A DNA stretch of 64,000 nucleotides from Cyanidioschyzon merolae (Eukaryota), in assembly GCA_000091205.1 (NCBI GenBank), contig AP006490.2; one strand, 5' to 3'. The notes beneath the pieces were generated by a model that saw only the letters and a list, made by a program, of their open reading frames with translations, searched no databases and had not been told where the DNA came from. Each line of letters begins with the position of its first letter. Positions within the stretch are counted from its first letter, which is position 1. Made by a program: the position numbers and the translations under genes. Shown piece by piece: positions 1,020-64,000 of the stretch.

Positions 1020-1280
1020 TTGGGCCGTACGTTTCCACACGCTCACCATGTCAGCTTATTCGATGGCTGCCCTGAGGCGCGTGAACGCTCGTTTCAATCC
1101 ACGGCACATACCCTTGACGGGTACAGAAAGCCTCCACAGATGCCCTGCTCGGTTTCCGCGCTCGGGGCCGTACGCGACGATAACCGGCTTCATCTGGAAG
1201 ATGCCCTCGATACGGACGCTGTCCTCTGCACACCTAGGCGCAAACTGCTCCATTCGACAGAGGTTTTGTGAAACGCGATG
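1020..1280. repeat. Diverged partial copy of the 1.34-kb dispersed repeat family (corresponds to ~29035-29170 of copy A)
   Basis: DNA and translated similarity of ~70% to the 1.34-kb repeat. Examples are ttcgatggc...cagcg/acggg tacagaa, and RHIPLTGTESLHRCPARFPRSGPY vs VRYVHWTGTEGSARCPVPLTQPVPY. A shorter echo of the same motif occurs at ~14400. Confidence 0.45.
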
Positions 1281-2310
1281 TTGACCATAATGATTCAGGT
1301 ACCGTACGGAGCACCCACACTGGAGAGGAAATAGAAAGATTTCGATCCGTTTAAGCTTGCGACTTGCAGTGCTGTAACGCACGATCCACTGGAAAGGATC
1401 GCTGCTGCGACTGGAGTCCGAGTATGGGACACTTTTCGGTGCACATAGTGGAGATGAGCAGCGCTCGGAGCATATCCGCTGAAGGGTATCATGCTGGTAT
1501 CGAATGCTGTACCGTTGTCTTCATAAATGGAGGATGATTTGCCTTTCGAAGGCAATCGCTTATTTGACTTAAAAATGTCCGTGAACTTTCGGCATGAGCC
1601 TGTGAAGAGACCTCCAAGAGGTGACCTCGATCGTAATCCACGGTAGTCCCCGGGTGAGGATTTCTGCGCCCCCGCGTACCCAGAAACACCAGGATCGAGA
1701 GCTTGATAACGCGTGATTCGGGTTTGCCGCTCGCAAGAAAAGGAGACGAATAGAGCCTGTTCGTATGTATTGGATAATGGTTTCGGTTATTTTAGGAACC
1801 TTGGTTCTAGGGATAGCGAATCATCCTCGATCCGTTGACGTTACGAATGCGAGCAACAAAGCGTCGAAGGAGCCACTCCCAAAACGAAGACCTAGAACCC
1901 CACCCGCCAACAACCAGGAATGAGTCCCAAGGCCCTTAATGCTGTACTTGCAAGTTCGAGGTTGTCCAATTGGAAAGTTTCGGACAATCTCCACCGCGGA
2001 TGAAATCGAGCACCTCAGGTTTCCGCGTTCATCTGGTACGAGTCTCGTCCAGAGACAGATCGCCACGAGACACCGTGATCGCGGTGGAGCGCGCACGCGC
2101 CCGACTGCTTCGCCTTGGCTGAAAAAGCGTTCTGCCCAATACCGGGTGCATCGCGATACTCGCTGTTGTTGAGGTTTCGTTCATAGCTCGCTCTGTGAAA
2201 CCAGCACGCTTCGGAGTATTTCCTCCGCGTAAACTGGAAAGGTTACACGTCGGTGTGCGGCTCTCTTGATAACAAGTGGTCCAGAAGGCGACCGTCTCAA
2301 GCCTGCAGGT

Positions 2311-2958
2311 ATGGACACAGCAATATCGCTCGCGGGAAAGGACTTTGTTCTAAGCGCAGCCGACGTGACAGCTGCACGCTCGATCGTGGTCATGAAGGAG
2401 GACCAGGACAAGATCCAAGAGCTGGATCGTTTTCGGCTTCTGAGCGCTGGCGGTGACCTCGGTGATGTGGCACAGTTCACCGAGTACATCCAGCGTAACG
2501 TGCACCTCTATGAGCTCCGAGCGGGAACGTCGCTGAGTACCCGCCAGATCGCCCATTTTATTCGTGGAGAGTTGGCGCGTGCCCTGCGCGAGCGTCCCTA
2601 CGAAATCAACCTGATCCTTGGAGGCTACGACCAGGGCGAAGGTACGTCACTATATTATATTGACTATTTAGGGAGCTTACACATGATGAAATACACAGCT
2701 CAAGGCTATGCAGCATATTTTGTGTTGAGCACGCTCGACAGACTCTATCGCCCGAACATGAACCTGGAGGAAGCGCTTGAGGTCTTACGTGCGTGCTTGG
2801 ATGAAATGGGTCGACGTTTTCTCTTAAAACAGCGCCACTTCATGGTCAAAATAGCGGATGAGCGTGGTGTACGCGTACTAGAAAATGCCTTCGTCGATGC
2901 ATCTGGAACGCCAACGTCGTCGGTGACAGGGGCGGCAGCGGCAGCCGCTACTTCTTGA
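2311..2958 (+). CDS. Proteasome subunit beta type-2 (beta-4, non-catalytic)
   Basis: ORF 2266..2958, with likely start at Met 2311 (MDTAISLAGKDFVL...). It aligns along its full length with PSMB2/Pre1-type beta subunits, e.g. FTEYIQRNVHLYELRAG and PYEINLILGGYDQGEG..LYYIDYLGSL. It has no Thr1 catalytic N-terminus. Confidence 0.85.
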   Translation: MDTAISLAGKDFVLSAADVTAARSIVVMKEDQDKIQELDRFRLLSAGGDLGDVAQFTEYIQRNVHLYELRAGTSLSTRQIAHFIRGELARALRERPYEINLILGGYDQGEGTSLYYIDYLGSLHMMKYTAQGYAAYFVLSTLDRLYRPNMNLEEALEVLRACLDEMGRRFLLKQRHFMVKIADERGVRVLENAFVDASGTPTSSVTGAAAAAATS

Positions 2959-3286
2959 ACGCTCGTGCAATATTTCTCCACATCCAGTCAGGGTGTACAG
3001 ACCAGCTGCATTGTGCTCGACGGGTGTACAAACAGACACGTGTACCTCGATAAATATTGCACAAATACCATTTTGAGCGATGAAAATATGCACTCACGAC
3101 AGCTGATTTGCTGGTGACGCATCATCTACCGGTGCCGAGTTCCATCGTGAACGCTGCCTGCACCTTTGCGCATATTCACAGATATTCTTTGATTTGGAAC
3201 CGTTTTCATGGACCTGGTACCAGTGCATAGTTGGAAGCTGACGACGCTCGCAGCGCCTCTTATACTTGGACAATGTGCAAACTTCC

Positions 3287-4993: not shown

Positions 4994-6312
4994 TCGTTCG
5001 AATGTGTCCTGTTGGAGCAGAGCGCCTCAGAATCAATGCCAGAAGCATGGAATCTTGCGGTTTGTGTTCGAACGCTTCGCATCTCCGCGAACGATGCGGT
5101 GCCCGAACTGGTGCGAGGGATTCTCGGATTCTGTGCTCCGTAGCCGCACTAGCGTCAGTCGATGCCTATCTACCCAAAAGTACATCTTCCAATGGGGAAT
5201 ACTGTAAGTCTGAACACGGGTGTACGGATAGAGAGAGGGACAGGCCGCGATGCATGCCCGCGACTTGCAGATGGATCGGAAGCGGCAGTGAAACTTTGCC
5301 GCTTCGAAGGACACGGTTGCGATACACTCCCACGCGCTGCTCTTTCGTGGACATCGAACTTGGACGCCTGTAGCATTGGACCCAAACTGGAAACCCTGCT
5401 TCATCGCGAACGTATCATGGACGCTATCTGGATATGTATCGTTGTGAGCGCTTCCGGATTCGGGGACCCTGCAGTGTTTCATGGATTGCGCTCTGCTTTG
5501 GTTGATGGATCAGAGACGCTGGCCCCCGTGGTGGTACTCCCGTGTGTTTCCGTGATTTTTCGATGATATTGGATCGTTAAAGCTAATCAGAGATACTCAG
5601 GTCGGCGCTTGTTCTCGGCATTCAGGGAAGCGGTCTTCATTTTGCCCGAAACCTTGCAAGTTCCATGACCCAGCTGCGAGACTTCCCACTCGAGTATCGT
5701 GATTCGTAGAGTGTGCGCTGTAATGCCAATAGCGCTGCGGCATCGCCCTGGCTGCAGTGTTGCCTCCTTTTGCGTGTCAGGCTGTGCGCTAGCGCAGCAC
5801 GGCTGAGCGCGTGTACCGTCTGCCACCTCGAGACCGAAGCAGAGCGGCTGCCAACTCGCCGTGGCAGACGACCGTATTTCAGCCACTGTGGTTGATACCG
5901 CTGCACTCGATTCTTTTCGCATCTGCAGGGATAGAGAGCAGCATTGTGATGTCTCATGCTTGCGAAAACACGTAAAGCTTCACATTTATCAGCATCGGCA
6001 TTTCGAGTCCAAATGCTGCTGTCGCCGCAAAGGCAGCTACATGGCTGCTTGCATGAACCCATGAGCGATGTGCTATGCTTGAAATACCGGATGAGATGCG
6101 CTCCTCTTTCACGGTTGGAGCATGAAATGGTGCACCTGATGCATAAGACGCTGCGACGATGTGGATGGGGAAAGACAGGACGCGCGATGCTCCCACCACG
6201 GCCATGATTCGCAGCGGAACGGCCTCTCGATCCTAAAGATATCGAACATCGTGCATGAAACAGAAAATGTACCACGATCATGTAGGGTAAATTAATATCC
6301 ATCTGCAGTCGC

Positions 6313-7680
6313 TTGCCGGCCTTTTTTGACAAGCGCCCTGCAATCGGCTTCGGTTCCTCCTTGTGCATTTCGACCCGGAGAGTCTGTGCCGCACATTTAG
6401 GTAGCGTGAGCTCCTCGGGTTTCGTCTTCAGCACAGCACGTATCCCGGTTCAGATGTCGGCGTTAAATTCTCAGTTCACAAGCTCCATGCGTCTGTTGCC
6501 TCTGGTTGAACTCGTCTATGCAAGGATTCCTCTCAATGGTGCCCTCTGCGGCACCACAGTCTCGTTATCGTGCCGTCGGGCACGCCCCTCTTCTCGCACA
6601 GCGCTCCGCTTCGTCTTCTTCTTCGTGTTCGTCACCGGTTCTTCTTCGCTCGATGACAGGCGAGAAGATTTTTTTATGTTTTTCACGTCGAACTCGGCGA
6701 CGACGGCCCTCGAGGATGCTCGACTTCCATGCTCATAACCCCTGGATATTTTATTTCTTCAAATGAGCGCACCATATTATCCCGATAGATGAGGAAATTC
6801 CTGGAGGGAGAAGCATTTGCGGCGGAAAGAGGAACTGCGTCCCATTGTATCATCATGCTGAACACTTCACTGGTTTGCCCAGCAGTGCGATCGTTACGTT
6901 TTACGATTCAAAATACTCCTTAAACGGGGTTGAACCACAGACAGTACGAAGGAATGCAACCAGCTCTACCCAGATAGAATCAGGAAAACCTCTTGCGCAA
7001 AGGGAATGGTGAGATGCCACAGTGTCCAATAGAAGGACGTTGCCAGATCGGAAAGCGAACAGTCTTCATTGATTCGACGAAGTGGGTGCTGTTGTATGTG
7101 CCTTCTGAAGTTGCGAAACTGATGCCGCAAAATGAATCTGCTGTAGCTCGAACAGATGATGATTTCCTCGTTCTCTTCGAGTTCAATTGTATAAACAGAC
7201 GGGCTCCCTGCTCCGCGAATACTCATATACGATTCGACCGTTTTACCCGAAACAAGTCTCATGAACCAGAATAACAAACCGATCGCGACGGTCTATGATT
7301 GCTGTCTTTGCGATTTCGGTGGAAGATGGCCGTGAATGCATGAGCTCTTTTTTTTGCGACTGTATCCCAGTGTTTTCAGGATCACACGAACAAGCTATTG
7401 AGAATCGGAGGTGCCCGTGGTGGCAATTATCTTCGCTTTTGCTTTCCGTAAGGTGATGAACGGGTTGTTTTCTGCTATGGGCGGCAAGCACCCTTGAAAA
7501 CATCGCTTCTTGACCCGAAGCGCGTATATCTGTTTCCTTCTTTCCGTGTTCCTCAACCATCTGAGTATTGTGGCACAACTGACCTCAAGAATGAATACAC
7601 TACTTGCACTTTTCAGTAAAGAATAGATATCCCACAGGGAATTCTCCCACGACCGATACAATACATTGCATCGTAACGTC
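6313..7680 (-). mobile_element. Decayed Tc1/mariner-IS630-like DNA transposon, copy 1 (transposase remnant plus companion X module)
   Basis: Minus-strand frames carry three recognisable motifs. The HTH-like motif is ITLRKAKAKIIATTGTSDSQ. The first-D region is DRFVILVHETCFG. Further downstream is WQRPSIGHCGISPFPL. The ORF is broken by frameshifts. The X module at 6313-6740 (+) is homologous to the X modules at 32.05, 58.8 and 62.2 kb. Copy 1 is ~75-80% identical in DNA to copy 2. Confidence 0.5.
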
Positions 7681-9336
7681 GATCTGCGGCTGCACAGCGT
7701 TCGCGGGACCGGACCATCCCTGAGAGCCTCTTTCGCTGAGCGCTCGCTCGTTTCCAGCGAGTTCGTTGCAAGCGGCGATCGTTCATACCTTTATACTCGT
7801 GGGCGCTGCATCATGTTCGTAGCAGTGAGCCAGCTGTTTCCTGCTCGTCACCAGGGTGCTCCGCGCACCCTCCGCGGGGCCAACGGACGCAGCACCGACA
7901 CGTACCGTCGCACCGTAGGGCCGGCAGTGCCGAAGGATGCAGAGGGTGCGTACGAGTCGGCTTCTGGCCGGGTCTGTTGGCAACGATATAGCGCTTTAAG
8001 GGCGGCAGCTGACTCAGAGTCGTCTCCGAAGGACGCCTCCCAACGAGTACACTCTTCGCTTTCGAGTACCGGCAAGGGCGAGCACTCGAAGCATATGCGC
8101 CTGGAAACCAAAGTCGTGCATGCTGGAAGCCACCCTGAGGAGTACACAACCGATCCATACGGTCGGACTGTAGTGAATCCACCTGTGTACCACGCTTCTA
8201 CTGTGCTGTTTCCAAACGTAGCTGCTAAAGACTTTGCTAGCAAAGACTGGCCGTTTCGTGGTTTCTCCTACGGACGGCATGGGACGCCCACGCACTGGGC
8301 CCTGGAGGAGGCTTTTGCAGCACTCGAGGGTGGCGACAATGCCTGCTGTGTTAGCAGTGGGGTTGCAGCATGTAATGCAGCGCTCTTGGCGTTCCTGCGC
8401 TCCGGCGATCACATTCTGGTTGCGGACACCGTGTACGAACCGACGCGCCTGTTCTGCAACAGTTTTTTAGCACGATTCGGGGTGGAAACGACATACTACG
8501 ATCCCGCTGCTCCAGTTGAATCTTTGGAGCCACTTTTCAAACCAAAAGGTCGCACAAAGGTGGTTTTCGTGGAGTCACCCGGCTCGCTCTCGTTCGAGGT
8601 GCAGGATGTGCGGGCGGTGAGCGCACTCGCGCACGCTCATGGAGCGGTGGTCGTTATGGATAATACGTACGGACCAACGCTGTTCCAGCCTTTCGCGGCA
8701 GGTGTCGATGTAAGCTACAACGCAGCAACCAAGTACATCGGTGGTCATTCTGATTTAATGATGGGCCTGATCGCATGCTCCCGTGAAACGTACCGCAAAG
8801 TGAAACGATCGGTGATGGAGCTCGGATGCCCCCCAGGCCCTGATGACTGTTATCTGGCACTTCGTGGCCTGCGGACGCTCACAGTTCGTCTGAAACAGCA
8901 CGAACAGAACGGCCTTGTTGTTGCACGATGGCTGGAGACACGCCCTGAGGTTGCGCGTGTGATACATCCGCTGTTACCGAGCCATCCGCAGCACGACCTC
9001 TTCAAGCGTGATTTCCGGGGTGCGAACGGTTTATTTACCATACAGCTGCGTGACGTTTATTCGCAAAAGGCAGTGAACGCCTTTGTTGACTCACTGAAGC
9101 TCTTTGGTCTGGGCTTCAGCTGGGGCGGCTACGAGTCCCTGATCCTTCCGATCGACATCAACGCTGTCCGAACAGTGACGAAGTTTAAGTATGGTGATGG
9201 CTATGGGCCGACGCTGCGATTGCATGTCGGACTGGAGGATCCTCAAGATCTTTGCGCGGATCTCGCCCAAGGTTTTGCGGTGTTGGATGCGGTGGCCGGA
9301 CTCGCAGGTGAGGTTGCTCGTACGCCACCGCGCTGA
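7666..9336 (+). CDS. metC: Cystathionine beta-lyase, bacterial MetC-type, PLP-dependent Cys/Met-metabolism family, with ~140-aa N-terminal extension
   Basis: From Met 8095 (MRLETKVVHAG...) it aligns throughout with E. coli MetC: YGRHGTPTHWALEEAFAALEGG, ATKYIGGHSDLMMGLIA (the PLP-Lys region), SWGGYESLIL and RLHVGLED. The upstream 143 aa are Ser/Arg/Ala-rich and resemble a transit peptide. Alternative starts are Met 7813 and Met 8095. Confidence 0.85.
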   Translation: MHRNVDLRLHSVRGTGPSLRASFAERSLVSSEFVASGDRSYLYTRGRCIMFVAVSQLFPARHQGAPRTLRGANGRSTDTYRRTVGPAVPKDAEGAYESASGRVCWQRYSALRAAADSESSPKDASQRVHSSLSSTGKGEHSKHMRLETKVVHAGSHPEEYTTDPYGRTVVNPPVYHASTVLFPNVAAKDFASKDWPFRGFSYGRHGTPTHWALEEAFAALEGGDNACCVSSGVAACNAALLAFLRSGDHILVADTVYEPTRLFCNSFLARFGVETTYYDPAAPVESLEPLFKPKGRTKVVFVESPGSLSFEVQDVRAVSALAHAHGAVVVMDNTYGPTLFQPFAAGVDVSYNAATKYIGGHSDLMMGLIACSRETYRKVKRSVMELGCPPGPDDCYLALRGLRTLTVRLKQHEQNGLVVARWLETRPEVARVIHPLLPSHPQHDLFKRDFRGANGLFTIQLRDVYSQKAVNAFVDSLKLFGLGFSWGGYESLILPIDINAVRTVTKFKYGDGYGPTLRLHVGLEDPQDLCADLAQGFAVLDAVAGLAGEVARTPPR

Positions 9337-14344: not shown

Positions 14345-15550
14345 TCCGTCTATGAGGACCGTTCTATAGCGCATGCTCGCTTAACTCCATCGCCCGGTAC
14401 ACGCCCTTGACGGTTCCAGAAAGCTCGGGTCGATGTTTCCGCCGGATACGCGACCGGTCCTGCATCCTGCGCGCAGAGACGCTTCTTTCGTGCGACTTGC
14501 TCGGCAAGTACGCTGTCCGCCGCACACGCAAGCGCACGCTATGCCCGTTTGATAGACGATTTGTGGGGCGCACTGTTGTACCCGACGAAACGAACCCCCG
14601 GGAAGGAAACGCTACGCTCGAGAACAGGTCGGGACATCCCGATCCGTCAACGCTCCCGTCGCACAAAGCGGCGACGCAAGCTCCTCTAGAACTGGTCGCT
14701 GCGCTGCCCAAAGTCCGAGCCCAACATCCACCTCCACGCAAACCGTGACACGAGAGCAGCTCCGAGCGTACTCCCCCAGAGGTATCGTGCTGCTGGAGCG
14801 TTCCGCTCGATCGATGAACACAGAAACCCGCGAATGCATTGTCTTTCGAACGGATTCGGGAGTATGGGGCGACAAGGTCAGTGAGTTTGCGGCTCGGTCT
14901 TGTGAGCCAGTCGTCGAGGAACTAGGTCGACGTTTTTCCTGGGCATCGCAGGTGCCCGGACCGCTGCGCCCACCAGTTGCCTTGAAGCGGACAGATCGAA
15001 ACCCTGAACCGTATTTGGTATGTGCATGCGACACATCGTATAACGGAAAGGAAGCACGGACACTTCTCCAGATGACGTGGATGGTCTATCGTCGTTGTTT
15101 TGTGAAGGCTTATGCGGGGACGTCGCGAATCGACATGACGATGGTGCGGTGACGGATTCCATCTGGGAAGAGTCGACGTTGCCGCTCCGAAACGTCGATC
15201 GAGCACCCTACAACCGGATATGCATCTGCGAGCCTTTCTGACTGGCACTTGAAATGGCGACGCTGTATACGCGAAACAGGCTCCGGAAACAAGTCATCGA
15301 AAGGAAGGAACCGAGCGAGCAGTTCAGGGTTGCGTTTCAGTCTGACGCCTTCCCAGATCCTGTTTGTGTGGACACGAACGATTACGAAACATGAACGCAT
15401 GCTCCATAGAAATGTTGTTGCATTTCCGTTTCTTTCCAGTCAAAAGAGCACATGTAAACGCGACTGATTGACAGAGCGTCTTTAAAATATGCGGATACAA
15501 AACCAACGTAACCTGGTCGAGAGCGCCGCGCTCTGCAGCCTGACACCCGC

Positions 15551-18679: not shown

Positions 18680-19680
18680 ACTACTTGTCTAGTTGTTTCA
18701 AGTTGAACCAGAAGCTCAACAAGTCGGCCCGAACGTTCGCCTCGTGCCCGCGTGATCGAGACTCGCTTGAACCAAGGGTACTGAAGTTTTCAGGAAACGT
18801 GCTTAACAGCGGCCCCGCTTCAACCCTTCCGAGGCGCTGGAAGAGCGGCGGCCGCGCCAGGCTTCGCAGAAAAGCTGTACACAAACGGACATTCTTTGAA
18901 GCAACGCGTGCGCGCGCTCCACCGGCTACCACATCCTTTATGGAAACACGGAATGATCTTGGCAGTCTCTACGGTACGTTTACGGCATCAGATCGATGCA
19001 TCGATTTGTATGCTCGCTGAACCTGCGTGTCCTAGCAGACCTGAGAAGAGAAATCAGTGCCTCCACAGACGTCGGTGCGAATTACAAACTCCAAAGTTTT
19101 ATTTCTGTGAAGAATACTAGCCAGATTCCAGCTGCCTCTCTGGTACCGAGCACGTCAGGAACCGCACAATGCGACGCTGGATATGCGCCGCAGTCGCGCT
19201 TTCCCCGCAGAAACAAAACGATTATGCGGCGCCTTTGCGGGTGTCTGTTCAGGGCGTTGCCAACCCGAGCCACGGCCTGTCCAGTCCTCGGGCCGGGCTC
19301 TCTCAATCTGCGGAAGCAGACCGATTACCAGCGACGCGGAAAGAAGCAATGACAGGAACTCGGTCGCTAGAGCGTAGGCTGGGCGTCGAGCGCCCCTTTG
19401 GCGTCGTGGATTGGCTGCCCGGACCTCGCGGCAGTGCCAATCACCGAGAAGGCGCTCCGAGCCCTGGCGCGGCAGACACAAAAAGACCGGTCCGCAGCGC
19501 ATTCGACCGAAACACTAAGATATCGCAATCGTGAGTGTCTGCAGCCCAACACAGGGCGGTCGGCGAGTCAAGCCTCGATCCCCTCGGATAACCCTGATCT
19601 GAGGCCTGGCCTGCAGACCACGGAGACGCCCATGCCTATCGCGATGCAGCATATCCGATCATCGGACACGTTCGCGCGTA

Positions 19681-19957
19681 CCGAAGGCAGCGTTGATCCG
19701 TAGATCCAATGCTGTCCCAAACTGTCTAGATACGTTCTTGAAATCGCATCATCGTCCGCATTCTGCGTTCCGAAGGCAGCATCGATCCGTAGATCCAATG
19801 CCATCCCATAATGTCTAGATACGTCCCTGAAATCGCCATCACCAGTGGCATTCGTGCGTTCCATAGGCAGCGTTGATCCGTAGATCCAATGCTGTCGCAA
19901 AATGTTCAGACGCGTCCCTGAAATCGCCATCTCCAGCGGCATTCGCGCATCCGCATC
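19681..19957. repeat. Tandem repeat, ~90-bp unit x ~3
   Basis: Units begin at 19681, 19770 and 19861, as ccgaaggcagcgttgatccgtagatccaatgc... The array generates the repeated LGQHWIYGSTLP peptide in antisense ORF 19568..19990. Confidence 0.85.
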
Positions 19958-24854: not shown

Positions 24855-25837
24855 TTGGCTTCCGTACGTAAAGACGAGGAGGTGCAATGCGGCCTTGACG
24901 CAGAACCCGAGACGAACACCCGCTTGTCCCGGAATGCATTGACGCGTCGCCGCCGCATGACGGTGGTCGGAGTATCTTCAGCGCAGGTGCCGAAAAGCAT
25001 CAAACCGAAACCAAAGCCATATGCGCGGCAATACCGAGGGCGTCATGAACTAGACCCTCTCCGAATTGTACCCGTTTTAGCGCAGCTCATTCACAGAGAA
25101 AAGTGGGTGCTGATGGGAAGCATTCTCGGGATGCCACCTGAGGCGGACAACGGTTTCTTGGCAAAAGTCCTGCATCTGGAAGCGAGCTCGACAGCGATGT
25201 CGCAGCGAGAGCGGGAGCCGCTTCAGATCGTCAAAGCTCACGGGATTGCACTTGGTCTTGGACCGGTGGACGTCCTCTCCAAGACATGGTGGACGTGTGA
25301 TGCCCGTCCTGCTCGCGTGATGCGAATCGACGTATGCCTCATGAGAGCGCTCAAGAGCAAAGCGATTTTCTTCTGCGAATCCGAGCGCTCTAGCTTCCTC
25401 AAAAATGTATTCTTTATCTTTCCCGTGACTCAGGTCAAGGCACACTGTATCTCTAGAGACACTTGTTTCGTGTGCTGCAAGTCGTCCTCAGAGAACTACG
25501 GTTGGTTTCTGCGAGCAAGGATGCAGCATTCGAACAGCGTGCTGAAGCGCATAGCCGGAGATCGCTCAAGGCCGCTCCATCGCAGACAATGAACGGGAAA
25601 CAATTCTCAGGGTTCATGGAGACAGACGGACTAGCCATCAGTGTGGGTCTTGTGAAATTTTTGAAACCCATGTCCGAGTCGAGCCAGGGGCCTCATTTTC
25701 AACTGTTCACGTTAGAACAAGACAAAGACTTCGCAGTGAGCGCAGTTCCTCGACTCAAGGAAAGTACGACCGTCACCGAGTACCTGCATGGAAAGCAGAT
25801 GGAGCTCGTCTGCTCTGTAGTGGCATGGTACGATTGA
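24855..25837 (+). pseudogene. Unassigned ORF pair in two frames (245 aa and 124 aa), possibly one frameshifted or fast-evolving gene
   Basis: ORF 24855..25592 and the overlapping ORF 25463..25837 in a different frame. No recognisable domain. The call rests only on ORF length and intergenic position. Confidence 0.2.
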
Positions 25838-27130
25838 GAGTCGAGCATGATGGACGCAACGAGGCATACCAGCAAGTGGAGCGCAGGCTTCTGGACCCAT
25901 CTCCACGCTCCGGGCATCGTATCTCGCAGAGGGTTGTGTTTTGCACGCCTGATTCAGAGTGTACGTTAGCGTCCAAGTAGATCATCAAGACGAGGTTTCG
26001 CAGGAATCCTGGACATGGCTTTGGCATAGCCGACGGTTTCCGTTCTTCAAAAGCAAAAAGCGTGCAATACGCAACTTGTTGAATGCTTTCCAAACGGAAA
26101 AGACCGAAAAGTCGCATCGTTTGTTGGTAACTTGCGGCACCGCGCATGCTGTGACGCGCTTATACTGCACTGCCCTTCCCTGGTCGCGAGCCGATAACGA
26201 GTGCGGGAGTCGATGCTATGCGATTCCCATTGAAGCGTTACGGACAGCATGGATGGATCACGAGCAGGGGCGAACGCTGAAATCCGCCACACAAGAAAGC
26301 TACAAACAAATCCGAATGCACGAAACGGTGCACGATAAGCAGATCGAGCGTCGTATTGTGAGGCACTCCAAGATGAGCTGCTTCCTATAGCGCGATTCCG
26401 CTGGCACCCAGGCACACGAACACACTCTGAAACGGGAATGGAGCGCCCGGGTCATCATCTGGCAATGTATTGTGCTTGTGGAGCATCCAGCGGCTTTACG
26501 TCGAGCGAACTTTCCAGAAAATCGTTTCTTACTCATTCTGATCATCGTGCTGGAACGCGGAAGACTCCCGAGGAAAAAGTTTCGTGACAAGGAGGGAGCG
26601 CATTGGATTCACGTCTGGAGCAAGGCACTGGCATGGTATGCGTCAACAGTTCTGAAATGTTGGAGTGCCAAGAATATACACCGAGAATGGTTTGCCCAGG
26701 CAACTGATGAACGGCAACGGTGCTCCACGATGCGGTATGAGTCCGCAGTCGACGCTGCGAAGCGTGTAGCGCCCTGCGGCACCAAAAAGATCTTAGGCCG
26801 CGCGGAACACCGCTGCGATGCAGAAAACGAATCAGAGGAACTTTGCGATACAACCCTCTCTGGTATATTTGAAGAACGTTGGTCGAGCTTTCCGGAAGCG
26901 TGTCGTTACCGAGACCTAATACCGAGCTCGCCTGTTTACAGCAGACTCTAGTGGAGTGCACGAGGCTTGAACCATTTGCAATCGATTCATCGATCCAACA
27001 ACTTACAAAAACCGTCTGCTTCGGGGGTCTGAAGTCTCACGCGGGTTTATGAGCAGCGTCCATGCCACGGGCAGACGCTGATTCGAAGCATCGAACTCGC
27101 ATCAGAGCGCATCGGATGCAGTGACGACCG

Positions 27131-28646: not shown

Positions 28647-29985
28647 CTATGCGAGAATAAAATGGAACGATGTCAGCTTCATGAATTCTGGTGTTCACGC
28701 GAACCCATAGGCCTGCTACCAGGATGATGAACACCGGCCGGTTGACGCTCATTCTGTCAATGCTTTCTGGTCTCCTGCATCGTATCTCCGATACGAAATA
28801 CGCTGGACTGCCGTCTCTCGCAAGTTACGCTGCCAGCAGTCGACGGGTATTCGTGGCGGCACGGGAGTCCCGATTTCGCTGCATGGGGCGGTTGTCAACG
28901 CTTTTCATCCAGAGTCGGAAGTTGCAATCAGCGTTTCTCTTGCCATTGGCATATTCCTTGGACACATCTCCGGTACGCCATCCGCAGCGTCGGCACTCGG
29001 CTGGCGTCAGACGTTCGGTGGAGTCCGCCAGAACGCCCCCTTCGATGGCCATCCTGTGGCTCGTCCATGCTTCCCTCAGCGTCCGGTACGTGCACTGGAC
29101 GGGTACAGAAGGCTCTGCTCGATGCCCAGTTCCGTTGACACAACCGGTGCCGTATCCCCTGATCACGCGCTCCTTCCACGCGATCCCGACGGTGAGTACC
29201 CTGCCTGCTGCATGAAACAGAGGATCTGTGGAACGCGGTGTTGTCTGTGGTGAAACAAGTACCAGAAGGACTATCCAGACTGGAGACGAAACCGAAAAGC
29301 TTCGCTGCGTCTATGCTCCCGCTGTACAAGCCGGTGACGCACGCTCCACACTGACACCGGTCGCTCCGACGACTACAGCCCGAGCCCAAGACCCGTTTCC
29401 ATGCAAACGCAAGTGACTGAGGCCCCTGGAAGCGCACCCCGCGAGCAGGCCCATGCTGGTGTGGAATGGCGTTCCATCTGTGGCCGCACTGAGCGTGTGG
29501 AGGATTCGTCCTTCCAATGGATTCGGTTCATTGGCGTTACAAGTGCAGTGAACATGCGGCATGAGCTTGTGGAGCATTCGTCATGCGACGGCGTTGCGTT
29601 CGTTTTCTTCGCATGGCTCCAGCGGCACTACTCTGGGGCGCCCGCGAGGTCTCTCGGGATCGAAAGATTGAAAAGCTCAAGAACGGGTGATTCGCGCACG
29701 CTACGGGCAAGCGGGGTAGAGGCATCGAGGCGTGCACGTATGGACTGGGTGATGGTATCGAAGGCTGATTCTGGGGAACGTTCACCGGCTGGGTTTCGAA
29801 TGATGTTGATTCTGGTGACGTAACGAAACCGGCGGTGGCGATGCGTCGAATGAGCCACACGGACACGGCATCAGAGAACTCTGAGACTACCTAGGAACGG
29901 GAGAGCCCTCATTGCTGTACTGGAATGTCGAGGCTGGGCATCTAGAAAGAGTCTCCGAACAAAACGTAGGGCTGGAGCAGAGCGA
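28647..29985 (+). repeat. 1.34-kb dispersed repeat, copy A (direct repeat partner at 40349-41692)
   Basis: About 1337 bp, ~98.8% identical to copy B with ~16 substitutions counted by eye. It begins ctatgcgagaataaaatgga and ends ...aaaacgtagggctggagcagagcg. Internal ORFs have no recognisable domains. Confidence 0.9.
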
Positions 29986-30478
29986 GCAGTGTAGTCTTTA
30001 ATTTTTATCTGATAATGTAAGCACGAATATTTCAATCCAAATCAGACCTCCAAGGTGCACTGGTTACCACTACAGAGCCGTCCCTTTGGAGTTAATGGTT
30101 CGTTCATACGATCCTGCGAATGCCGGGCCTGGAGTGTGTACCCCGCTGCAACAGAGCAGCCTTGCTCTACGCTTGTGCACTTGCGGTGCCGCCACGATGC
30201 ACCTGACGCATGGTCGGGTATTGTTCCCAGTTTATGCCCCGATAGTCTGCGTGTGCAGGTGTGCCAGCACGGAACGACGCACCGGAGAAACTCAGCTCTT
30301 TGGACAAACCGCTGGTATCGAGACTCGCCAGGCAATCTTCTATGGGATATGGTGCGGGTTCAGGGCGCGGGCCTTCCTATGTGTATATTGCGTGCGCGCC
30401 GCAGCGTTCCTGGATGTTGAATCCATTGGTGTCTGCGCTCGCGACACATCACATTGTTAGGCTAGTCGTTTCACTTTT

Positions 30479-30682: not shown

Positions 30683-32049
30683 GTGCATTGAACTGGAGCG
30701 TTTCCCGCTGGTTGACGAAGTCGACAAGCTCGTGGGCAAGTGGTTCACATGCTGTTGCGAATCCCTGTTTGTGGACTGTGCGTTGTACCAGAGGCGATGC
30801 GTGCGGAACTCGCGTGAAGTTGAAGGTGTGAAGCGCTTTTTCCCTGTGCACGCAGGCGCTGTGCTCGTGAAGCGCTACTGCATTACATTTCTTCATACAG
30901 GCCAATGCATGACTTGGGGGTTTGCATCCAGGACTTTGGGATGTCGTCGGAGCTTGACGTGTTACGCGGCTGGTCGTGGCGGTTCCACAGCTGCGCACGG
31001 ATATCTATGGTTCCTGTCAGTTTCCCAGGCATCGGTTGTCTGTCAGCGTGAACCTGGCCATGGAGAACGACGAGCTTGGGCGGCAGCGCTTTTGGAGAGA
31101 CTTCATTGGCAGCTGTGACTGGATTTGGATGAATGGGCGGCAAAAGACAGCGATGCCAGGCGGTTACCAAGCTCATGCCGGAGTTTTTACAGAACATAAA
31201 ATCGGATATTGCTATATGTTGAAAAACTACTTTTGGAGCGAAGCGGGAGCTTTTCTTATGGATTTGGCTTCCTCAAGGAATGTCGCCGAAAGCTGCGAAG
31301 GCGTCTATCCTTGGACTTTGCTGTGAGGTATTTGAAGCTAACGCAGTTGGCCTCGTGATGCATCATTCCGCAGCGACCCGAACGTCATGATCTTCTCGCT
31401 TTTTGATCAGTTTTCTGGTCCGATCGAAGTCGGTCAAAGGTAAGAGGGAGAATCTTGCGCGAAATTCGCGGCCGGCTACTCGTGGCAAGTCTCCATAGAC
31501 AGCACCAAGCTTCCTTTCGAGTCTTGAGTTCGCCAAAGGCAAGCAGGCTGACTGAAAACGACTTGACAGTGCGAGTCGAGCTGCTCCGTGGTTTCATTTG
31601 AGGCGTCTGCATGAAAAACGACTAAAAAATGACATTCTTGATGGAGTTCGCATCATGGGTTCAGTTTGGGGAAACTCCCAGTCCCGATGTGCACATTCCA
31701 GCAAAGCATATCAGTCGTGGTCCAAGTCTTTTTATCCGTTTTTTTGATAAGGTTCGGAATTATGATCGACTCTGGAACAGAAGAGATTGTTGGTGCGGCG
31801 CACTAGTCCTCGCGACGGCCTAGAAACCTCACTGTGTCCGCTTTTTCTGATTTGGCACAGAGGGCATCGCTGGAAGCTTGCAAAGCAAGACTGTAATGAT
31901 CTTCTCCACGAATTCCATGCGATGAATGAAACAAAAAATTTCCCACGACCATAGAGGTTAAATGAATACCGACGTACAGATTTCTCCCAGCCTATTTCGA
32001 TCGGCCTCCTGCTATCGGCTACGGCTTCCCTCTGTACACTTCGAGTTTG

Positions 32050-33275
32050 AGAGGCAGCCCCAGAAAGTTGGATCGCGTCAGTTCCGCAGGTATCGTTTTC
32101 AGCACCGCACATCGTCTGATATTGATGGCGGCGCTCAAGTCTCGGTTCACGAACTCCATGCATGCTCTGCATCTGGCTGAACGCATCCATGAACGGATTC
32201 CTAGAACTCGTGTGCACTGTTCCATTTGCTGCTCTGTCAGCTCTCCGTGCTTTTCTATCGCCGAAGCGCTCGCTGGCTTCTCTCCAGCTCGACCTTATGG
32301 GGTGTGCGCCTCAGGTCATTCGTTCTTTTTTTCATGAATGCACTTGTTGATGACTTCAGATGAGCACCTTCACAGAGCGAGAAGGAGTTGCGGAGGGGAG
32401 ACGAGATGTCCTCCGTCCCTCGTGTGTCAAAGTATGCTGAAAGCTAAAGCGATTCTGCCAGTGCAGAGAACATTGCGTTTCACAATAGAAAATACTCCTT
32501 CGATGCGGTTGAAGCATGGCGAGTATATAGGAATCAAAAGCAGGTCCTCTCTCCGACAGAATCGGCAAAGGCTCCAACGCAAAGGAAATGATGAAATACC
32601 ACACTGTCCAATAGAAGAACGTTGCCAAACCTGCAGGGGAAAGTCTTTATAGAATCGACGTAGGGGTGCTGTTGTATGCGCCTTCCGGAGGAGCGAAACT
32701 GAGACCGCCAAACGAATCCTCTGCGTCTAAAACAGATGACGGTGTCGGTCTATTCGAGTTCGATCGTACATACAACACGCGCCTTATCCGCGAATACCCA
32801 AGTACGCTCTGACCCCATCGCGCGAAGCAAGTCTCATCGACCGAAAAAAACAAATCGACGTCCTTGTGCATCATACTCATCGTGACGTTCCAGGAACGCT
32901 GTCGTTCCGATGTCGGTGGAAACTGGCGCTGCTTGAACTATGATGCATCCTTTGCGACTGCATCTCAGTGATTTCAGGACCCCGCGAACAAGCTGGGGAG
33001 AAACAGAGGCGCCAGTGGTTGCTACGATCGTCGCTTTTGCTTTACGTGAGATGATCAACGGGTCGTTTTCCACCATTGACTACAAGCAGTCTTCGAGAAT
33101 ATCGGTTTCTGGCACGGAGCGCATATACTCGTTCGTTTCATTGTTCCATACTTATCTGAGTACTGTGGTATGACTGACCTCCAGGAGGAATGCAGTCCTC
33201 CTTGCTTTGTTCAGTAAAGAATGTATCTTAAAAGCAGTTCGTCTACGGTCCCTAGGATATATTGCATAGTGATTC
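32050..33275 (-). mobile_element. Decayed Tc1/mariner-IS630-like DNA transposon, copy 2 (best-preserved transposase remnant plus X module)
   Basis: Minus-strand frames carry the HTH SRKAKATIVATTGASVSPQLVRGVLKSL and the first DDE Asp region FFSVDETCFARWGQSVLGYSR. The second Asp region LIPIYSPCFNRIEGVFSIVKRNV is present with D mutated to C. Frameshifts and stops interrupt the ORF. The X module lies at 32050-32340 (+). Confidence 0.55.
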
Positions 33276-33819
33276 CCATCTGTTATACACTGCGAAAAGG
33301 CACTCGATTCCACGTAGCACATGTGAAACAGCATTGAGTTGAAAAACGATAACGAGTAGCTATGAACCAAATTGCATACTGGGGCACAGCCAGCGGAAGC
33401 TTTATGCGCCTGCGCGACTTTAGGACTCCACAGCGGCGCTCGAGTTGGATCCTCGAGCGTGAGCCTAGTTGAGGCTCCGGTGCCGTACAGGCTCGCAGCG
33501 TTACCCGGCCAAACAAGTACGCGAGCGGGAGCCGTGTCGTGTTCGCGGCATTGACTCGTAACCGACAAGAGCGTTGCCAATCAGGCGCTCGGGGGGACAC
33601 CTGCTGGCTCACCTACGTGCGCGTTCGAGACGCTGCCTCAAAAGTCGACTGTCGTACGAGACTTTCTGCGTCGCAAGGAATAGCTTTTGGGCCCTAGGGA
33701 CGCGCGGTCCGTGTCCGTTGCGCGCACTGTCGAAGCTTTCGCTCTTCGTGAGGAAGTTGCGTCTTTAGCGAGAACTTTCGATAAATAAATCATCCACGAC
33801 TTTGAAGCCTTAGAACGCT

Positions 33820-57858: not shown

Positions 57859-58789
57859 TACCAGAATTGTACAGATATATTCAGAAAAATTCGAAATTGT
57901 GTCCGTTCATCTTGCGCGCAGCGCAGCCGCTTCTTTTCCACAGCAGCGGCTACGGTCGCGCACCCCACGCTCCGGATGCGCCTACACGGTGTTTGGCGAA
58001 ACGGTGATCCGAGGCCATCGATCCTCGCCCGAATTCCAAGTTCCATCATCCATGCTGCTTCTCGGATATACTGATTACCTTATGGGTTCTATCCTTCGCC
58101 GAGTGCCTGCCTTGCTGCATCCGTGATAGCGCGTATGCCGCTGGTGCGGATGCATGACGGAGACTGTACGGCTTTGCCGTACCGCTGAGGGCGTCGACTC
58201 GAGGTGGGATTCCCCTCACACGGGGTCGGGATTCATGATCATGCTGGGAGCCTGCGGCAGTGCAAAGCGATATCCTAGAAGGCTACCACGATCAGGGCGG
58301 CGCCTAGACGCAGCATACCCGCTGCAAGTCTCAGAATCGGCTGCGTTACGGACAGGCTGCTCAGATCGCACTACAGCACCCGCTACCAAATGGGAACGTG
58401 AAGCACTGGCGTGGCAGGCTCGTCCGGCTCACGGGACCGCACCCCTTGAAGGTAAACTTTCGAAAATAGGGGAAGCGTTTCCCATTTTCTAACGTTTACC
58501 ATGCGGGTCGAACGAACTTGTTATATCGTTACTAGTAAGTTCTTAGTTTGTGGTCTTTGTTCTATATAGTGCGGTCGAGATGCGCACCTGCATTTCTGGT
58601 AGGCGTGAGATACGACGCGCATCTCGCCGTTGAAGGGGAACGCGATCCTGACCGTTAGCGTGCCGCTCTAACTTACAAGTTGGATCGACGTTGAAGTGAT
58701 TGCAAAGCATAGGCTTTCAATTCAATTGTATTTCAACCCTCAAGTGAGTGTATTCAAGTGCTTCTTCGCGGTTTATAGCAGACGCGTTC

Positions 58790-59300
58790 AAAGCGCGTTC
58801 GTTTTCGAATGTGAAAAAGAAAAGGTATAGACATGCAAGTCGAGGATTCTGGAGGCCCGATGTCGCCGGATTCGACAGCAAAAAACGAGAAAAAACCCGC
58901 ATCTCGCCTGCTGCCGGACGAAGGAGAGCATGTGACGTAGTAAAAAGAAGAAGGTAGATAGAAGAGAAAAGATGTTGCGTCGACGGGACGATGACGAGAG
59001 TGTAGTGGCACAGAGGGCACGCAGTTCAGGAACCCTTGCAATCGTGAGTTCCACCAGAGGCAATGAATGCATGGAGCTCGTGACCCAAGACTTTAACGCC
59101 GCCATCCAGACCAGACGAAATGTGGTGCTGAAGACGAGATCCGAGACGCTGAAGCGAGCCAGCTTCCTGGGAGCATCCTTCTGGGGTCGAAGTGTGCATG
59201 CAGAAATTGAAACTGATAGCAGGTCACGGGTCAAAATAGGCAGAGAGGCGTCTGCGGGTGGATGCGCTTTTACCCTCCATGGCCGTGAAACGTTGTTCGT
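58790..59300 (-). repeat. Solo copy of the X repeat module (companion of the Tc1-like element)
   Basis: VFSTTFRLVWMAALKSWVTSSMHSLPLVELTIARVP is homologous to VFSTARIPVQMSALNSQFTSSMRLLPLVELVYARIP at 6.4 kb and to IVFSTAHRLILMAALKSRFTNSMHALHLAERI at 32.1 kb. The terminal motif ggcgtctgcgggtg...ggccgtgaaacgttgttcgtttcgctga at 59225-59300 recurs at 62590-62660. Confidence 0.5.
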
Positions 59301-59854
59301 TTCGCTGAACGTGTTTGTCTGACAGAAGCCGTTTAGAATGTCCAGGGATCCCCGATTATGTGATGGATATCAGCAGTCGGGAAAGCGTTCATCGTCGCAC
59401 CTATATCCAAGTTCCTTTATCTCGATGTGGGTGATCTGCGCTGCTGCGGCTGTAGCTGGCAATCCAGCCGCAATCTATGGATTCGCGTGATGCATTCTGA
59501 CTGGGCATGTTGGCATTGTCACGAGGTCCAGCGCATAGAGCGTGTAAATGCGAATACAATGATCAAGTACGGACTGCCATTGGTGCAGAATTGTCTGGGG
59601 TAGAGATCGGTCTAGGTATTGTACATGGAGCAGGTAAACAGCGACCCAAGGATCAAGTATGAATTGGAACTCTTTACGGAAATGTCTGGGAGGAACTCCG
59701 TGACTCCTTTGCACTGTGGCTCTCTATCTCTCCAAGATTCAGGCCTTCGGAATGAAGGCATGCGTAAGGTGCTCGATTCTGTTCGGCTTCTCGGTCAGCG
59801 AGGAGAAGGTCTTACGACAAAGGCATCGCGATAGAGCCGCCTCTCGAGATGCGA

Positions 59855-60871: not shown

Positions 60872-61259
60872 GAGCGCGCGCCTTAATTATAGGCATACTT
60901 TTCGGCGCAAGGTGGTCCCGTTCGTTCTGGAGGCGCACTACTACTACTGCTGCTACTGCTGTTGCTATCTTTGAACGTTGTCTATTCCACTTCTAGAAGG
61001 GTGGACATGAACCTGTTCACGGCGGCTACCCTGCAGATCAACACCCCAGTCGTTGACGTCATTACCAAAGGTCGAATACGACAACGTACGGACAGTTTGG
61101 ATACAGCCGCGCTGCTCGCTTGGTTGCTTGGCGGCGACGCGTTGAGCAACGCAACCGGCCCTCGATGACGTTCTGCAGCGTGTTCCAGTCTTTCAACTCA
61201 AATTGGTTCATCCCCATTGTGGGGTATAGTAGGCGGTAGGCATCACGACGCAGTATAAC

Positions 61260-62660
61260 CATAGATTGTAGAAGAATTGCCTGTATGATCGATTCTGTAC
61301 CGAACAGTGAAAGGAAGATTGCATTCCTCCTTCAGTGCTGTCATACAACAGGATTCGGATGGTTGACGGGCACTGAAAGGAAGAAGTATTTACGCTCAAG
61401 GCCAAAAACAGATGCTCTCGAAGAATGCGTGCAATCAATTGAAGAAATCGATCCGTGGATCACTTTATGGAAAGCAAAAACGACTATTGTAGCCGCAAAG
61501 GGCGCTTCTGTTTCTGAACAGCTCGTTCCAGTGATCCAGAAAACACTGGGATACAGTCTCAAAAAAATATTTTAGTCGGCGAATGGCCATCTTCCACCGA
61601 TATCGCAACGACACCGCTCCTGGAACGTCGCTCTCGGTATGAATCACCGCCAACTCTGTTTGTTTCCCAGTCGATGAGACTTGCTTCGGATGAAACGAGC
61701 GGAGCTTATACGGGTATACGCGGAGCAGGGCACCCGTTACGTTTCCGATCAAGCTCGAGGAGATCGACGAAATCATCTCTTCTAGCTGTAGTGAATGCTT
61801 TTCGCGGCCTCGGTTTCTCTCGTAGAGAAGGCTCACACAGCGGCACCCTCTGCGTCGATTCATTGAGGACTTTTCCCTGACATCTGGTGACGTCCTTCTA
61901 TTGGGCAACGTGACATTCCACTGTTACTCTTGCGTTCCAGCTTTTGCCAGTTCTATCGGGGAGTAGAGCTGCTTTTCATGCCTCCGAAATCTCCGTAGTT
62001 CAGCCCCTTGTAGGAGTGTTTTCGATCGAGAATAGTAATGAACGCTCCATTGGCTGAATTGCTGAGCGTTCAGCACACGGTGACAAACCGGAGCACATGT
62101 GGTTTATCTTGCAAAAAGTCGTCCTCGCTCCGGAAAGACGCTCACCCAACAGCATAAACAAGTGCGTTCATTTGAACGGTTCAAAAATCTAGGGGAAAGA
62201 TATTGATATGAAATTCGAGGATCCTGGAACGCAGTCACCGGAGGTTGCCGAAAAAACGGAAAAATCCTCTTCTCATCCAGCATCGAGTGAAGAAGAACAA
62301 GTGTCGCAAGGAGGCGAAGCGGAGATATATTCGAGAAATGGTGTTTGACGGATGGGACCTTGACGAGACTTGAATGGCACGGAGGACACGAATTTGAGGA
62401 ATGAGTTCAACCGGCGGCAATAATCGCACTGGGTTCTGGAATCGTATCGTATACCTCGTCCTCAATCTCAGGAAATGTGCGGAGCTGAAAAAGAGACCTG
62501 CGTAGCTGACGCGATCCAACTTCATAGGATAACCTCTCAGGCTCGTAGCGTGCCTGCATAAACTGAAACCGAGAGCAGCTCATCGCTCAAGAAAGGCTCG
62601 GAGGTGTCTGCGGGTGTGTATATATTTATCCTCCGCGGTCGTGAAACGTTGTTCGTTTTA
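61260..62660 (+). mobile_element. Decayed Tc1/mariner-IS630-like DNA transposon, copy 3 (inverted relative to copies 1-2) plus X module
   Basis: Plus-strand HTH ITLWKAKTTIVAAKGASVSEQLVPVIQKTLGYSLKK is homologous to SRKAKATIVATTGASVSPQLVRGVLKSL in copy 2. The downstream SDETSGAYTGIRGAGHP resembles the first-Asp region. The X module lies inverted at 62235-62525, with the terminal motif at 62590-62660. This is the mirror-image arrangement of copies 1 and 2. Confidence 0.45.
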
Positions 62661-64000
62661 CTGATAACATATATATGCAGCGCCCAAGTTTCAAGGCATT
62701 TGCAACGAGGATGCAGGTTTCGATGGATGCGCATACAAGGCCGCGGCATCTTCGGAGATCGTGGATGGTGTACTGCCTGCTGCATGGTACAGAATCGATG
62801 AAGTTGATCCGAGTCTTGTGGATGTATGAATCATTTCCGCAGCCGAGAAGCGGGCATCGATTCCATCAAAGAAAATTCCGCATGCTGCCGATGCTGTACC
62901 CGAGTCAGATTAGAATGGAGCACTGTACTGCTCGTTATGATCAAGCCTTTTGTTTTTTGAACTAATTTGCGGGTACAGTCTTGACGTTCGAAGTGAATCA
63001 ACCGGGTTGAAGGATTCATGAGTAGTTTCAGGAGTCTCGATCGTCGTTGCCGGGCAGCCGCTTAGCCGCGTGGCTGCTGGTATTCGTTACGGCACCGGGA
63101 TCAAGGTGCATCGCGACGCCCACGAATTGAGGTTCGTAATATAGTCGACTCGTATACCGATGCATGCGTTCGAGCCGGCACTCTTCGCCTTTTCTAGCGT
63201 TCAGTACGCTCACGTCACGCATAGTTCGCGCCTTCGATCGTGCGGTTTCCCAGCAACAACACATGGGCGCAGCAGTTCGCGCTGCCCCACTGACGAGGAA
63301 GCGTACGCGCCGTCATCGCTTGAACGAATTGCTCAGAGGCACACACGCCGAGCATTCACTGCACTGGGCACCTGCAATACTCGATTCCACTCGAATGATG
63401 CATCGTCCATGCTTGTGCGCATCGACGCAACCGCACGCAACCGCACCCAGCAGCAGCAGCAGCAACAAAAACAACAACATAGTACATCTCACGGGATACG
63501 CTCGGGGAAGCTCCCGTCTCTTTCCTATAGACGGAAAAGGGTCGTGCACCAGGGCTCGCGTCATCGCGGCGATCATATGCCGTGGAGCGTGCGACACCGC
63601 GTTGCATGGACGCAGCTCAGCCGGATCGACTGTGTGTTTGCGTCATGGAGTTTCCTTGCTGCACGTGCTCCACCAGGGACAGCATCGCGATCCACAAATC
63701 CGCCAGTGAATGGAATAGTGTGTACGCTTGCGCGCCCAGCGGACGCGGGACTTGTTGCCCTGATCGCCCGCAGCAGGTCCGTGGTCGTAGCGTGCGATAC
63801 CAGTCGCGGGAGCGTGGGGGCGTATGCAGGCGAGCACGCTGTACCCGTTCGGATCCTGGAACCAAGGGATGAAGCGAGCGCCTACTCGCCGCAGCGCAGC
63901 GCTCGGTGCCTGACATGTGGTGGACGCGCACGGGAAGCGCCTCTCGGTAGTCACGCGTGACTGCTCCTGAGCCATGCCGCCGTTGTATGCAAACCAGATG

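Follow-up and report, generated by a model that had tools for sequence, protein, structure and literature searches.

Decayed Tc1/IS630-type transposons of Cyanidioschyzon merolae carry a Fanzor1 relic and very probably descend, like CMe-1A, from a two-gene element

The 64,000-nucleotide stretch of chromosome 8 of Cyanidioschyzon merolae strain 10D analyzed here (CMH locus tags; hereafter the window) contains three dispersed, dead copies of a Tc1/mariner-IS630-type DDE transposon, which we call A, B and C. We consider it very probable that they are pseudogenized remnants of a DD34E Tc1/IS630-type (DDE_3) cut-and-paste transposon that ancestrally carried a second gene, for a Fanzor1 protein, that they are deletion derivatives of this two-gene element, and that the C. 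merolae Fanzor1 family CMe-1A is a reciprocal derivative of it. What we observe directly is the homology of both modules, the order of the two genes in relatives that are intact, two deletion junctions and copies in decay. An association of Mariner/Tc1 elements with Fanzor1 is already known in general (PMC3627910, PMC10530073), and the link of CMe-1A to a Tc1/IS630-type transposase appears to be new within the literature searched.

Self-BLAST of the window recovers copies A (6257-7645, minus strand), B (31944-33276, minus) and C (61239-62664, plus) with E=1e-76 to 1e-100. A first-pass annotation had already recognized three related copies, and all of the peptides it quoted occur in the frames it gave. 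The extents it proposed (~6313-7680, ~32050-33275 and ~61260-62660) locate the copies correctly but are too short (Table 1, in which the extents of A-C are approximate). Pairwise identity is 66-70% rather than the 75-80% it reported; a figure of that height, 76%, is obtained only as the mean column identity of the three-way alignment, which is not a pairwise value. The similarity covers ~1.4 kb and includes the DDE domain, which rules out an origin in low-complexity sequence. Every window copy has in-frame stops and frame changes, two or three frames being needed to read each one, and the family had rightly been called dead on the strength of these lesions: all copies are inert fossils, and nothing of them in the window is functional today.

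The first of the two modules is a transposase. Single-frame translations match the Pfam profile DDE_3 only below threshold (E=0.02-0.08), so stitching was needed, and we ran Pfam profiles on the translation of a majority consensus of the copies stitched across frameshifts. The stitched consensus matches DDE_3 with E=3.9e-14 (53.2 bits, cutoff 28.6) from position 5 to 141 of 146, nearly the whole profile, which upholds the earlier assignment to the Tc1/mariner-IS630 type; stitched copy B alone reaches 27.8 bits (E=2.6e-6). Independently of stitching, intact DDE_3 proteins of ~295 aa found in a protein database search, 35-44% identical to the consensus, match the raw window copies by tblastn (A, E=1.7e-16; B, 2.1e-26 with P0001; C, 6.6e-20), and copy B is also matched by the transposase of an environmental relative discussed below, L033 (E=4.5e-27). 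The PUl-1 ‘Mariner’ transposase is homologous to it as well, along the whole protein (E=2e-25 to 8e-10). No intact Cyanidiales transposase was found among the database matches, with 5.8 billion proteins searched.

The first catalytic Asp lies in VDETCF, the second in GNVLLLDSV(V/A)FHH, and the third catalytic residue, a Glu, in YSPWFNPIEGVF, which carries the YSP..N.IE motif. The peptide LIPIYSPCFNRIEGVF, previously labeled as the second Asp region, is actually the Glu motif and is intact in copy B. All three motifs are recognizable in the window: they are complete in the consensus and in copy B, and mutated in copy A (first Asp to His, and the Glu region) and copy C (second Asp to Gly, and the Glu region). 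The second Asp and the Glu are separated by 34 residues in 5/5 intact relatives (P0001, P0002, P0003, P0006 and P0008), that is, DD34E; Tc1 is DD34E and IS630 is DD35E (PMC11544213). As for the helix-turn-helix-like segment that the first-pass annotation had proposed, the peptide (VSHTTVLRWL) is present, and its position and sequence fit an N-terminal helix-turn-helix, but the stitched consensus scores under the Pfam cutoffs with both HTH_Tnp_Tc3_2 (E=0.0019, 18.8 bits, cutoff 31.5) and HTH_33 (E=0.023).

The last ~450 bp of copies A-C are not transposase but a Fanzor1 relic, whose translation contains CMEFVNRDLSAAINIRRC, a TnpB/Fanzor-like C-terminus. The first-pass annotation had thus identified the transposase correctly but had missed this relic in the 3' third of the element, along with a fourth copy, D, which self-BLAST detects at ~58821-59308 (plus strand) as resembling only the 3' part of A-C. 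Pfam's TnpB zinc-ribbon profile matches the 3' module with E=0.003-0.005, and Cas12f1-like_TNB matches copy B with E=0.0026, under its cutoff. Using the CMe-1A consensus DNA (3169 bp) and the 734-aa CMe-1 protein from the supplements of PMC3627910, we found by tblastn that CMe-1 matches the stubs of all four copies: B with E=6.6e-25 (aa 628-728, 53% identity), A with 3.5e-12 (aa 640-728), C with 6.5e-11 and D with 4e-9. Two junctions are visible. In copies A, C and D, CMe-1A nt ~1070 is fused to nt ~2840, with the Fanzor start codon and ~55 codons retained; in copy B a point a few codons past the Fanzor start is fused to nt ~2737.

What the window preserves are Fanzor relics, not Fanzor genes. 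Only the last segment of RuvC is left (NRDFNAAINI, RuvC-III; decayed to N*EFNADI in copy A), and the complete domain is not present; therefore the stubs cannot encode a nuclease. Two regions with invariant columns among the relatives, GxDPG (CMe-1 aa ~430) and DEFRTS (aa ~603), fall inside the deleted part. Pfam does not recognize CMe-1 or its full-length relatives at E<0.01. A profile made from CMe-1 and three full-length relatives, searched against solved structures, matches Fanzor1 of Parasitella (9cf0, E=1e-14), Spizellomyces (8gkh, 1e-8) and Guillardia (9cer, 2e-5). That profile of full-length relatives was needed: the stitched stub, compared with PDB sequences, gave only a chance match to a ribosomal protein.

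Both modules stand side by side in relatives elsewhere. A transposase is followed directly by a full-length CMe-1-clade Fanzor in L007, L009, L010, L027, L028, L030, L033 and L034, and the gap between the two genes is 34-190 bp across these eight intact or near-intact relatives. On three AT-rich Logan contigs an intact transposase is followed after 34-46 bp by an open reading frame (ORF) of 603-620 aa that is a full-length CMe-1 homologue (E=7e-95 to 4e-76); on one of them, the 52-kb L007, the element lies among SNF2, ERCC4, RNase III and DNA-methylase genes. Giant-virus bins of IMG/VR contain the pair in L027, L028 and L030, the last 38% identical to CMe-1. Besides numerous Cyanidiales Fanzor ORFs, a search with CMe-1 returns two that are full-length but divergent; these lie on L033 and L034, which come from the JGI samples 3300008963 and 3300007033. 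L033:1-3538 is an apparently intact two-gene element (GC 47%), with a transposase ORF at 53-958 (301 aa) that has all three catalytic motifs and a Fanzor ORF at 1146-3254 (702 aa); the source's gene caller had not called the transposase ORF. L034 has a frameshifted transposase and a 698-aa Fanzor.

Within the Cyanidiales the arrangement is equally regular and everywhere decayed. In a metagenome scan with the consensus, all 16 Cyanidiales loci (16/16) show a decayed transposase and, ~300 bp on, a Fanzor C-terminus only, starting from aa 612 or 640. That the transposase and the stub recur together in every one of these loci argues that the architecture was inherited. The copies fall into two deletion types, type I comprising B, L017 and L019-22 and type II comprising A, C, D, L011, L013-16, L018 and L023-26. 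Each type retains sequence that is missing in the other; therefore neither can be derived from the other, and both come from a longer form. Stops and frameshifts are found in every Cyanidiales copy.

Such regularity bears on the simplest alternative, that the copies are plain Tc1/mariner relics and the Fanzor-like 3' piece an unrelated neighboring or nested insertion. The weakness of the single-frame TnpB zinc-ribbon matches is in keeping with that view, and CMe-1A is abundant enough in the genome (PMC3627910) for chance adjacency to be conceivable. We nevertheless regard it as very improbable, given that the junction and its spacing recur in 3/3 window copies as well as in all of the environmental ones, that divergence is similar in the transposase and stub modules, and that the eight relatives keep the same gene order.

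CMe-1A has been described as a family of ~150 copies with ~80% identity to its consensus, with ‘no TIRs, classification unknown’ (PMC3627910). Its genome-wide copy number, and the presence of at least five Fanzor-related relics inside this one window, qualify the earlier description of the genome as otherwise poor in transposable elements. By local alignment, the 77 bp before the transposase ATG in copy B and in L019 resemble CMe-1A nt 786-862 (z=12 and 8.9; 0/200 shuffles), and past the transposase ORF the copies pick up again at CMe-1A nt ~855-871. CMe-1A therefore looks like this element with its transposase ORF taken out. One full-length CMe-1A copy, L032, has no transposase; at L032:4721-4950, inside its Fanzor ORF, three tandem units of a ~77-bp segment (CMe-1A nt 2117-2195) are present, which explains why P0047 has 752 aa instead of 734.

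Copies A-C have in common with CMe-1A the leader (nt 786-862), the Fanzor start and C-terminus, and a similar age (~80% to consensus for CMe-1A). They differ in that CMe-1A lacks a transposase and carries a ~785-bp 5' region (TE-N2_CMe-like), whereas in A-C the DDE_3 gene is present and the Fanzor is reduced to a stub, and the extreme 3' tail is partly different. At the DNA level the overlap of A-C with CMe-1A is confined to the leader, to nt ~855-1070 and/or to nt 2737-3092; these copies are without nt 1-785 and have the transposase gene instead. These copies are a sister lineage of CMe-1A, not members of it. By DNA similarity to the CMe-1A consensus only copy D belongs to that family: it matches nt 2809-3104 and, upstream, where A-C have their transposase gene, nt 90-969 (77.5% identity). 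Copy D is a deletion derivative of CMe-1A that lacks the transposase and most of the Fanzor, both genes having been lost.

The direction of the change matters here. CMe-1A, with Fanzor only, could be ancestral in the Cyanidiales, with the DDE_3 ORF inserted later into its leader; relative to CMe-1A the ORF is a clean indel bounded by nt ~862 and ~855-871, an indel has no inherent direction, and according to Bao and Jurka Fanzor elements are often chimeric (PMC3627910). We judge such a secondary capture improbable, since the transposase-Fanzor order is kept in distant relatives in which both genes are homologous to the Cyanidiales ones, and since the right-end core of the window copies matches the core of the terminal inverted repeats (TIRs) of two-gene elements. 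Given that distant relatives have the two-gene order in common, the change more probably went toward loss of the transposase in CMe-1A.

The ends of the intact relatives are well defined. TIR cores match at 14/14 positions in L033 (TGAATAATGAAACA), 18/18 in L034 and 20/21 in L010, each reached by 0/1000 shuffles; the ends of L007 taken alone are not significant. No flanks are visible for the intact relatives, since their contigs stop where the elements end. In the window, a right-end core is recognizable in all copies, whose shared tail ends in TTGTTTCATTCAT (copy B) or variants of it. This sequence matches the L033 right-TIR core, TGTTTCATTATTCA, except for a 2-nt gap, and the right-end core of copy A resembles it too. 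Copy A also has a candidate left TIR, and the pair, with TA outside both arms, is suggestive; the pair was found post hoc, and the score of the left arm is reached by 16/300 shuffles. A search upstream of B, C and D found no left TIR that was significant against shuffles, and an inverted-repeat scan of the window copies yielded nothing convincing. We do not claim the CMe-1A 5' end and the 3' tails of the copies as a TIR, as the score is reached by 7-10/500 shuffles at best.

We therefore favor descent from a two-gene element, with a history that would run as follows. The ancestral element would have consisted of a left TIR, a short leader, a transposase of ~300 aa, a Fanzor1 RNA-guided nuclease of ~700 aa (CMe-1 lineage) and a right TIR. 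While it was active, and judging from the Tc1/mariner family, the transposase would have used an N-terminal helix-turn-helix to bind the TIRs and would have moved the element by cut-and-paste; judging from work on TnpB and Fanzor (PMC10432273, PMC10690162), the Fanzor, guided by RNA from the 3' end of the element, would have cut DNA in a manner that favored the element's persistence. In the Cyanidiales lineage, internal deletions would have removed ~590 Fanzor codons at least twice. The resulting element, transposase plus Fanzor 3' stub, would have amplified and then died, its copies now being ~30% diverged pairwise. CMe-1A would be the reciprocal derivative, which kept the leader, the Fanzor gene and the 3' end and from which the transposase ORF was removed.

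Several observations weigh against this history. We found no Cyanidiales copy in which a transposase stands beside a full-length Fanzor; the full-length Cyanidiales ancestor is a putative one, reconstructed from where the deletions join and from relatives with viral or unassigned hosts (L033 and L034 among the latter). The consensus was built from only 3-4 copies, the helix-turn-helix scores lie below the Pfam cutoffs, and the TIRs of the window are weak, with a left arm and TA in copy A only. The argument from independent deletions is complicated by L017 and L018, which lie ~7 kb apart on the same contig (Ga0078972_1000949), are of different deletion types and form a mosaic in which identity is 90% over the transposase part but 70% over the Fanzor stub; this suggests recombination or gene conversion between subfamilies. 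Finally, L013:94-1064 and L019:4010-5000 share ~1 kb upstream of the leader at 72% identity despite their different deletion types, which is unexplained. This shared region has no coding signal and no similarity to CMe-1A (nt 1-785 included) and is absent from A-C. Pieces weakly similar to it occur at window positions 1149-1606, 14500-14566 and 63663-63754.

A different question is whether the 3' stub was kept for a function. Under one proposal it would be a functional ‘ghost’ omegaRNA gene that uses the CMe-1A Fanzor in trans while CMe-1A uses the transposase in trans; the two-gene transposon would have split into two lineages, each depending on the other for mobilization or protection. The stubs would then be transposase-linked ‘ghost’ omegaRNA genes, one lineage carrying transposase and stub and the other a Fanzor without transposase. 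Two different deletions both spared the last ~290-400 bp, some CMe-1A copies have intact Fanzor ORFs (PMC3627910; P0047, 752 aa), and Fanzor omegaRNAs come from the 3' end region, may overlap the ORF and are known from protein-less loci in S. punctatus (PMC10432273). Moreover, L007:8779-8935, the ~150 bp from the Fanzor stop to the right end, has 49% GC against a background of ~33%, and a guide RNA would be expected at this place. Structure prediction gave the proposal no support. RNAalifold on 11 stubs gave -3.7 kcal/mol and no real covariation, and single-sequence folding gave z scores of -0.3 for the B stub, +1.3 for L007, which folds no better than its shuffles, and -1.95 for L010. The five intact elements yielded no consensus structure, being too divergent to align, and there was no Rfam match. 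With the copies decayed and the relatives unalignable, these tests have little power. The stubs are also no better conserved than the transposase part, and the need for a right TIR together with the chance placement of deletions explains their retention equally well. On balance we find a functional stub unlikely.

The setting of the copies raises one further possibility. As the first-pass annotation had stated, copy A is flanked by a WD40 gene and a gene for a pyridoxal-phosphate enzyme of Cys/Met metabolism, and copy B lies between a protein kinase gene and ESF2; in both intervals the genes are divergently transcribed. This position could be read as co-option of the relics as regulatory DNA, and so could the retention of C and D, at an unchanged site, by environmental strains with 99.1% identity. 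We give that reading hardly any credence. Intergenic space is where a compact genome tolerates insertions, and the relics differ by 0.3-0.8% between strains, like intergenic DNA, against 0.1-0.2% in a neighboring conserved gene, a comparison that rests on few differences and is uninformative.

The closest known systems are PUl-1 of Pythium ultimum and PGv-1 of Phaeocystis globosa virus, Mariner/Tc1 elements with Fanzor1 (PMC3627910). They share with the element described here a transposase followed by Fanzor1 inside TIRs and a link to giant viruses. PUl-1 differs in that identity is only ~25% and its second Asp and Glu are 43 residues apart (our count from the published sequence) as opposed to 34, and the window copies differ from both in being dead and in having lost ~80% of the Fanzor gene. 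The element resembles Tc1 of C. elegans and IS630 of Shigella sonnei in the DDE_3 domain, the DD34E spacing of Tc1, a candidate N-terminal helix-turn-helix and the short TIRs of the intact relatives. Unlike them, the relatives here carry a second gene, Fanzor1, their TIR cores (TGAATAATGRAACAC) are not of the CAGTG type, and the TA duplication is only a candidate. The Fanzor ‘ghost loci’ of Spizellomyces punctatus (PMC10432273) likewise keep the 3' end of a Fanzor element without the nuclease ORF; those loci have an omegaRNA, whereas the stub described here is attached to a transposase gene and shows no conserved fold.

Table 1. Positions of the transposon copies and their parts in the window
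Feature	Position	Strand	Evidence and remarks
Copy A, whole element, type II deletion derivative	6236..7791	-	self-BLAST; extent from multi-copy comparison and candidate ends
Copy A, 3' tail with right-end core (CTGTTTCATGCACGATGTTCGATATCTT)	6236..6299	-	TA outside at 6235-6234; tail conserved among copies
Copy A, Fanzor1 relic	6300..6730	-	start and ~55 N-terminal codons joined to C-terminal ~90; CMe-1A nt 871-1070 and 2840-3085
Copy A, transposase pseudogene	6751..7671	-	ATG at 7671; first Asp mutated (VHETCF); 7 stops across tblastn high-scoring segment pairs, three frames; query P0001
Copy A, candidate left TIR, 30 nt	7762..7791	-	matches reverse complement of A right tail; TA outside at 7793-7792
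Copy B, whole element, type I deletion derivative, best preserved	31919..33351	-	
Copy B, Fanzor1 relic	31971..32296	-	few start-proximal codons joined to aa 628-728 (CMEFVNRDLSAAINIRRC); CMe-1A nt 2737-3092
Copy B, transposase pseudogene	32316..33267	-	VDETCF, GNVLLLDSVVFHH, YSPCFNRIEGVF; 4 in-frame stops and a frameshift
Copy B, leader	33268..33351	-	homologous to CMe-1A nt 786-860, upstream of the CMe-1A Fanzor ATG; z=12, 0/200 shuffles
Copy D, CMe-1A-type element without transposase, Fanzor deletion as in A and C	58015..59311	+	Fanzor ATG at 58833
Isolated CMe-1A 5' end (nt 4-106)	59320..59422	+	blastn 77%, E=1.3e-15
Copy C, whole element, type II	61187..62668	+	
Copy C, transposase pseudogene	61248..62189	+	start codon changed to ACG; VDETCFG*; second Asp lost (LLLG); tblastn query P0002
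Copy C, Fanzor1 relic and 3' tail	62208..62668	+	N-terminal codons and aa 638-729

Other repeats and relics lie among these copies. The isolated CMe-1A 5' end, 100 bp long, begins 8 bp past the right end of copy D in tail-to-head orientation, and could represent two adjacent insertions or a junction of another kind. A second Fanzor1 pseudogene, older and more divergent, occupies 24917-26513 (plus strand) and matches P0087 over aa ~150-687 (31-45% identity, E=1e-34); it is broken by frameshifts and stops, has no transposase relic upstream and is nearer to the L034-type Fanzor than to CMe-1. Mechanical ORFs run through the Fanzor stubs at 5637-6434 (minus strand, 265 aa) in copy A and 31732-32217 (minus strand, 161 aa) in copy B, without a Pfam match; should either have been annotated as a gene, the annotation is probably an artefact of the relic. 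A 1.34-kb repeat, mentioned in the first-pass annotation, is present in two copies (28647-29990 and 40351-41694) that are 98.7% identical. Its ORFs have no Pfam match, ~230 bp of it (29361-29589) show 67% resemblance to the 1-kb region upstream of the L013 transposase, and a faint transposase-like tblastn match occurs at 29216-29320 and 40914-41024 (E=0.001-0.005). Tandem arrays are found at 45396-46373 (137-bp unit, 7.1 copies, 97% identity) and 19671-19945 (91-bp unit, 3 copies, 83% identity).

The window thus shows the likely autonomous partner of CMe-1A, a DD34E Tc1/IS630-type transposase with the CMe-1A leader and 3' end. With the intact two-gene unit present in giant-virus bins, viruses are possible vectors. 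Saito et al. (PMC10432273) regard the way in which cut-and-paste transposases work together with RNA-guided nucleases as an open question, and L033 offers a compact transposase and Fanzor pair whose cooperation is open to experimental test. For C. merolae itself, the most abundant repeat reported in the compact genome of this model extremophile alga can now be placed, with the same high probability as the two-gene ancestry, among the Mariner/Tc1-Fanzor1 elements.

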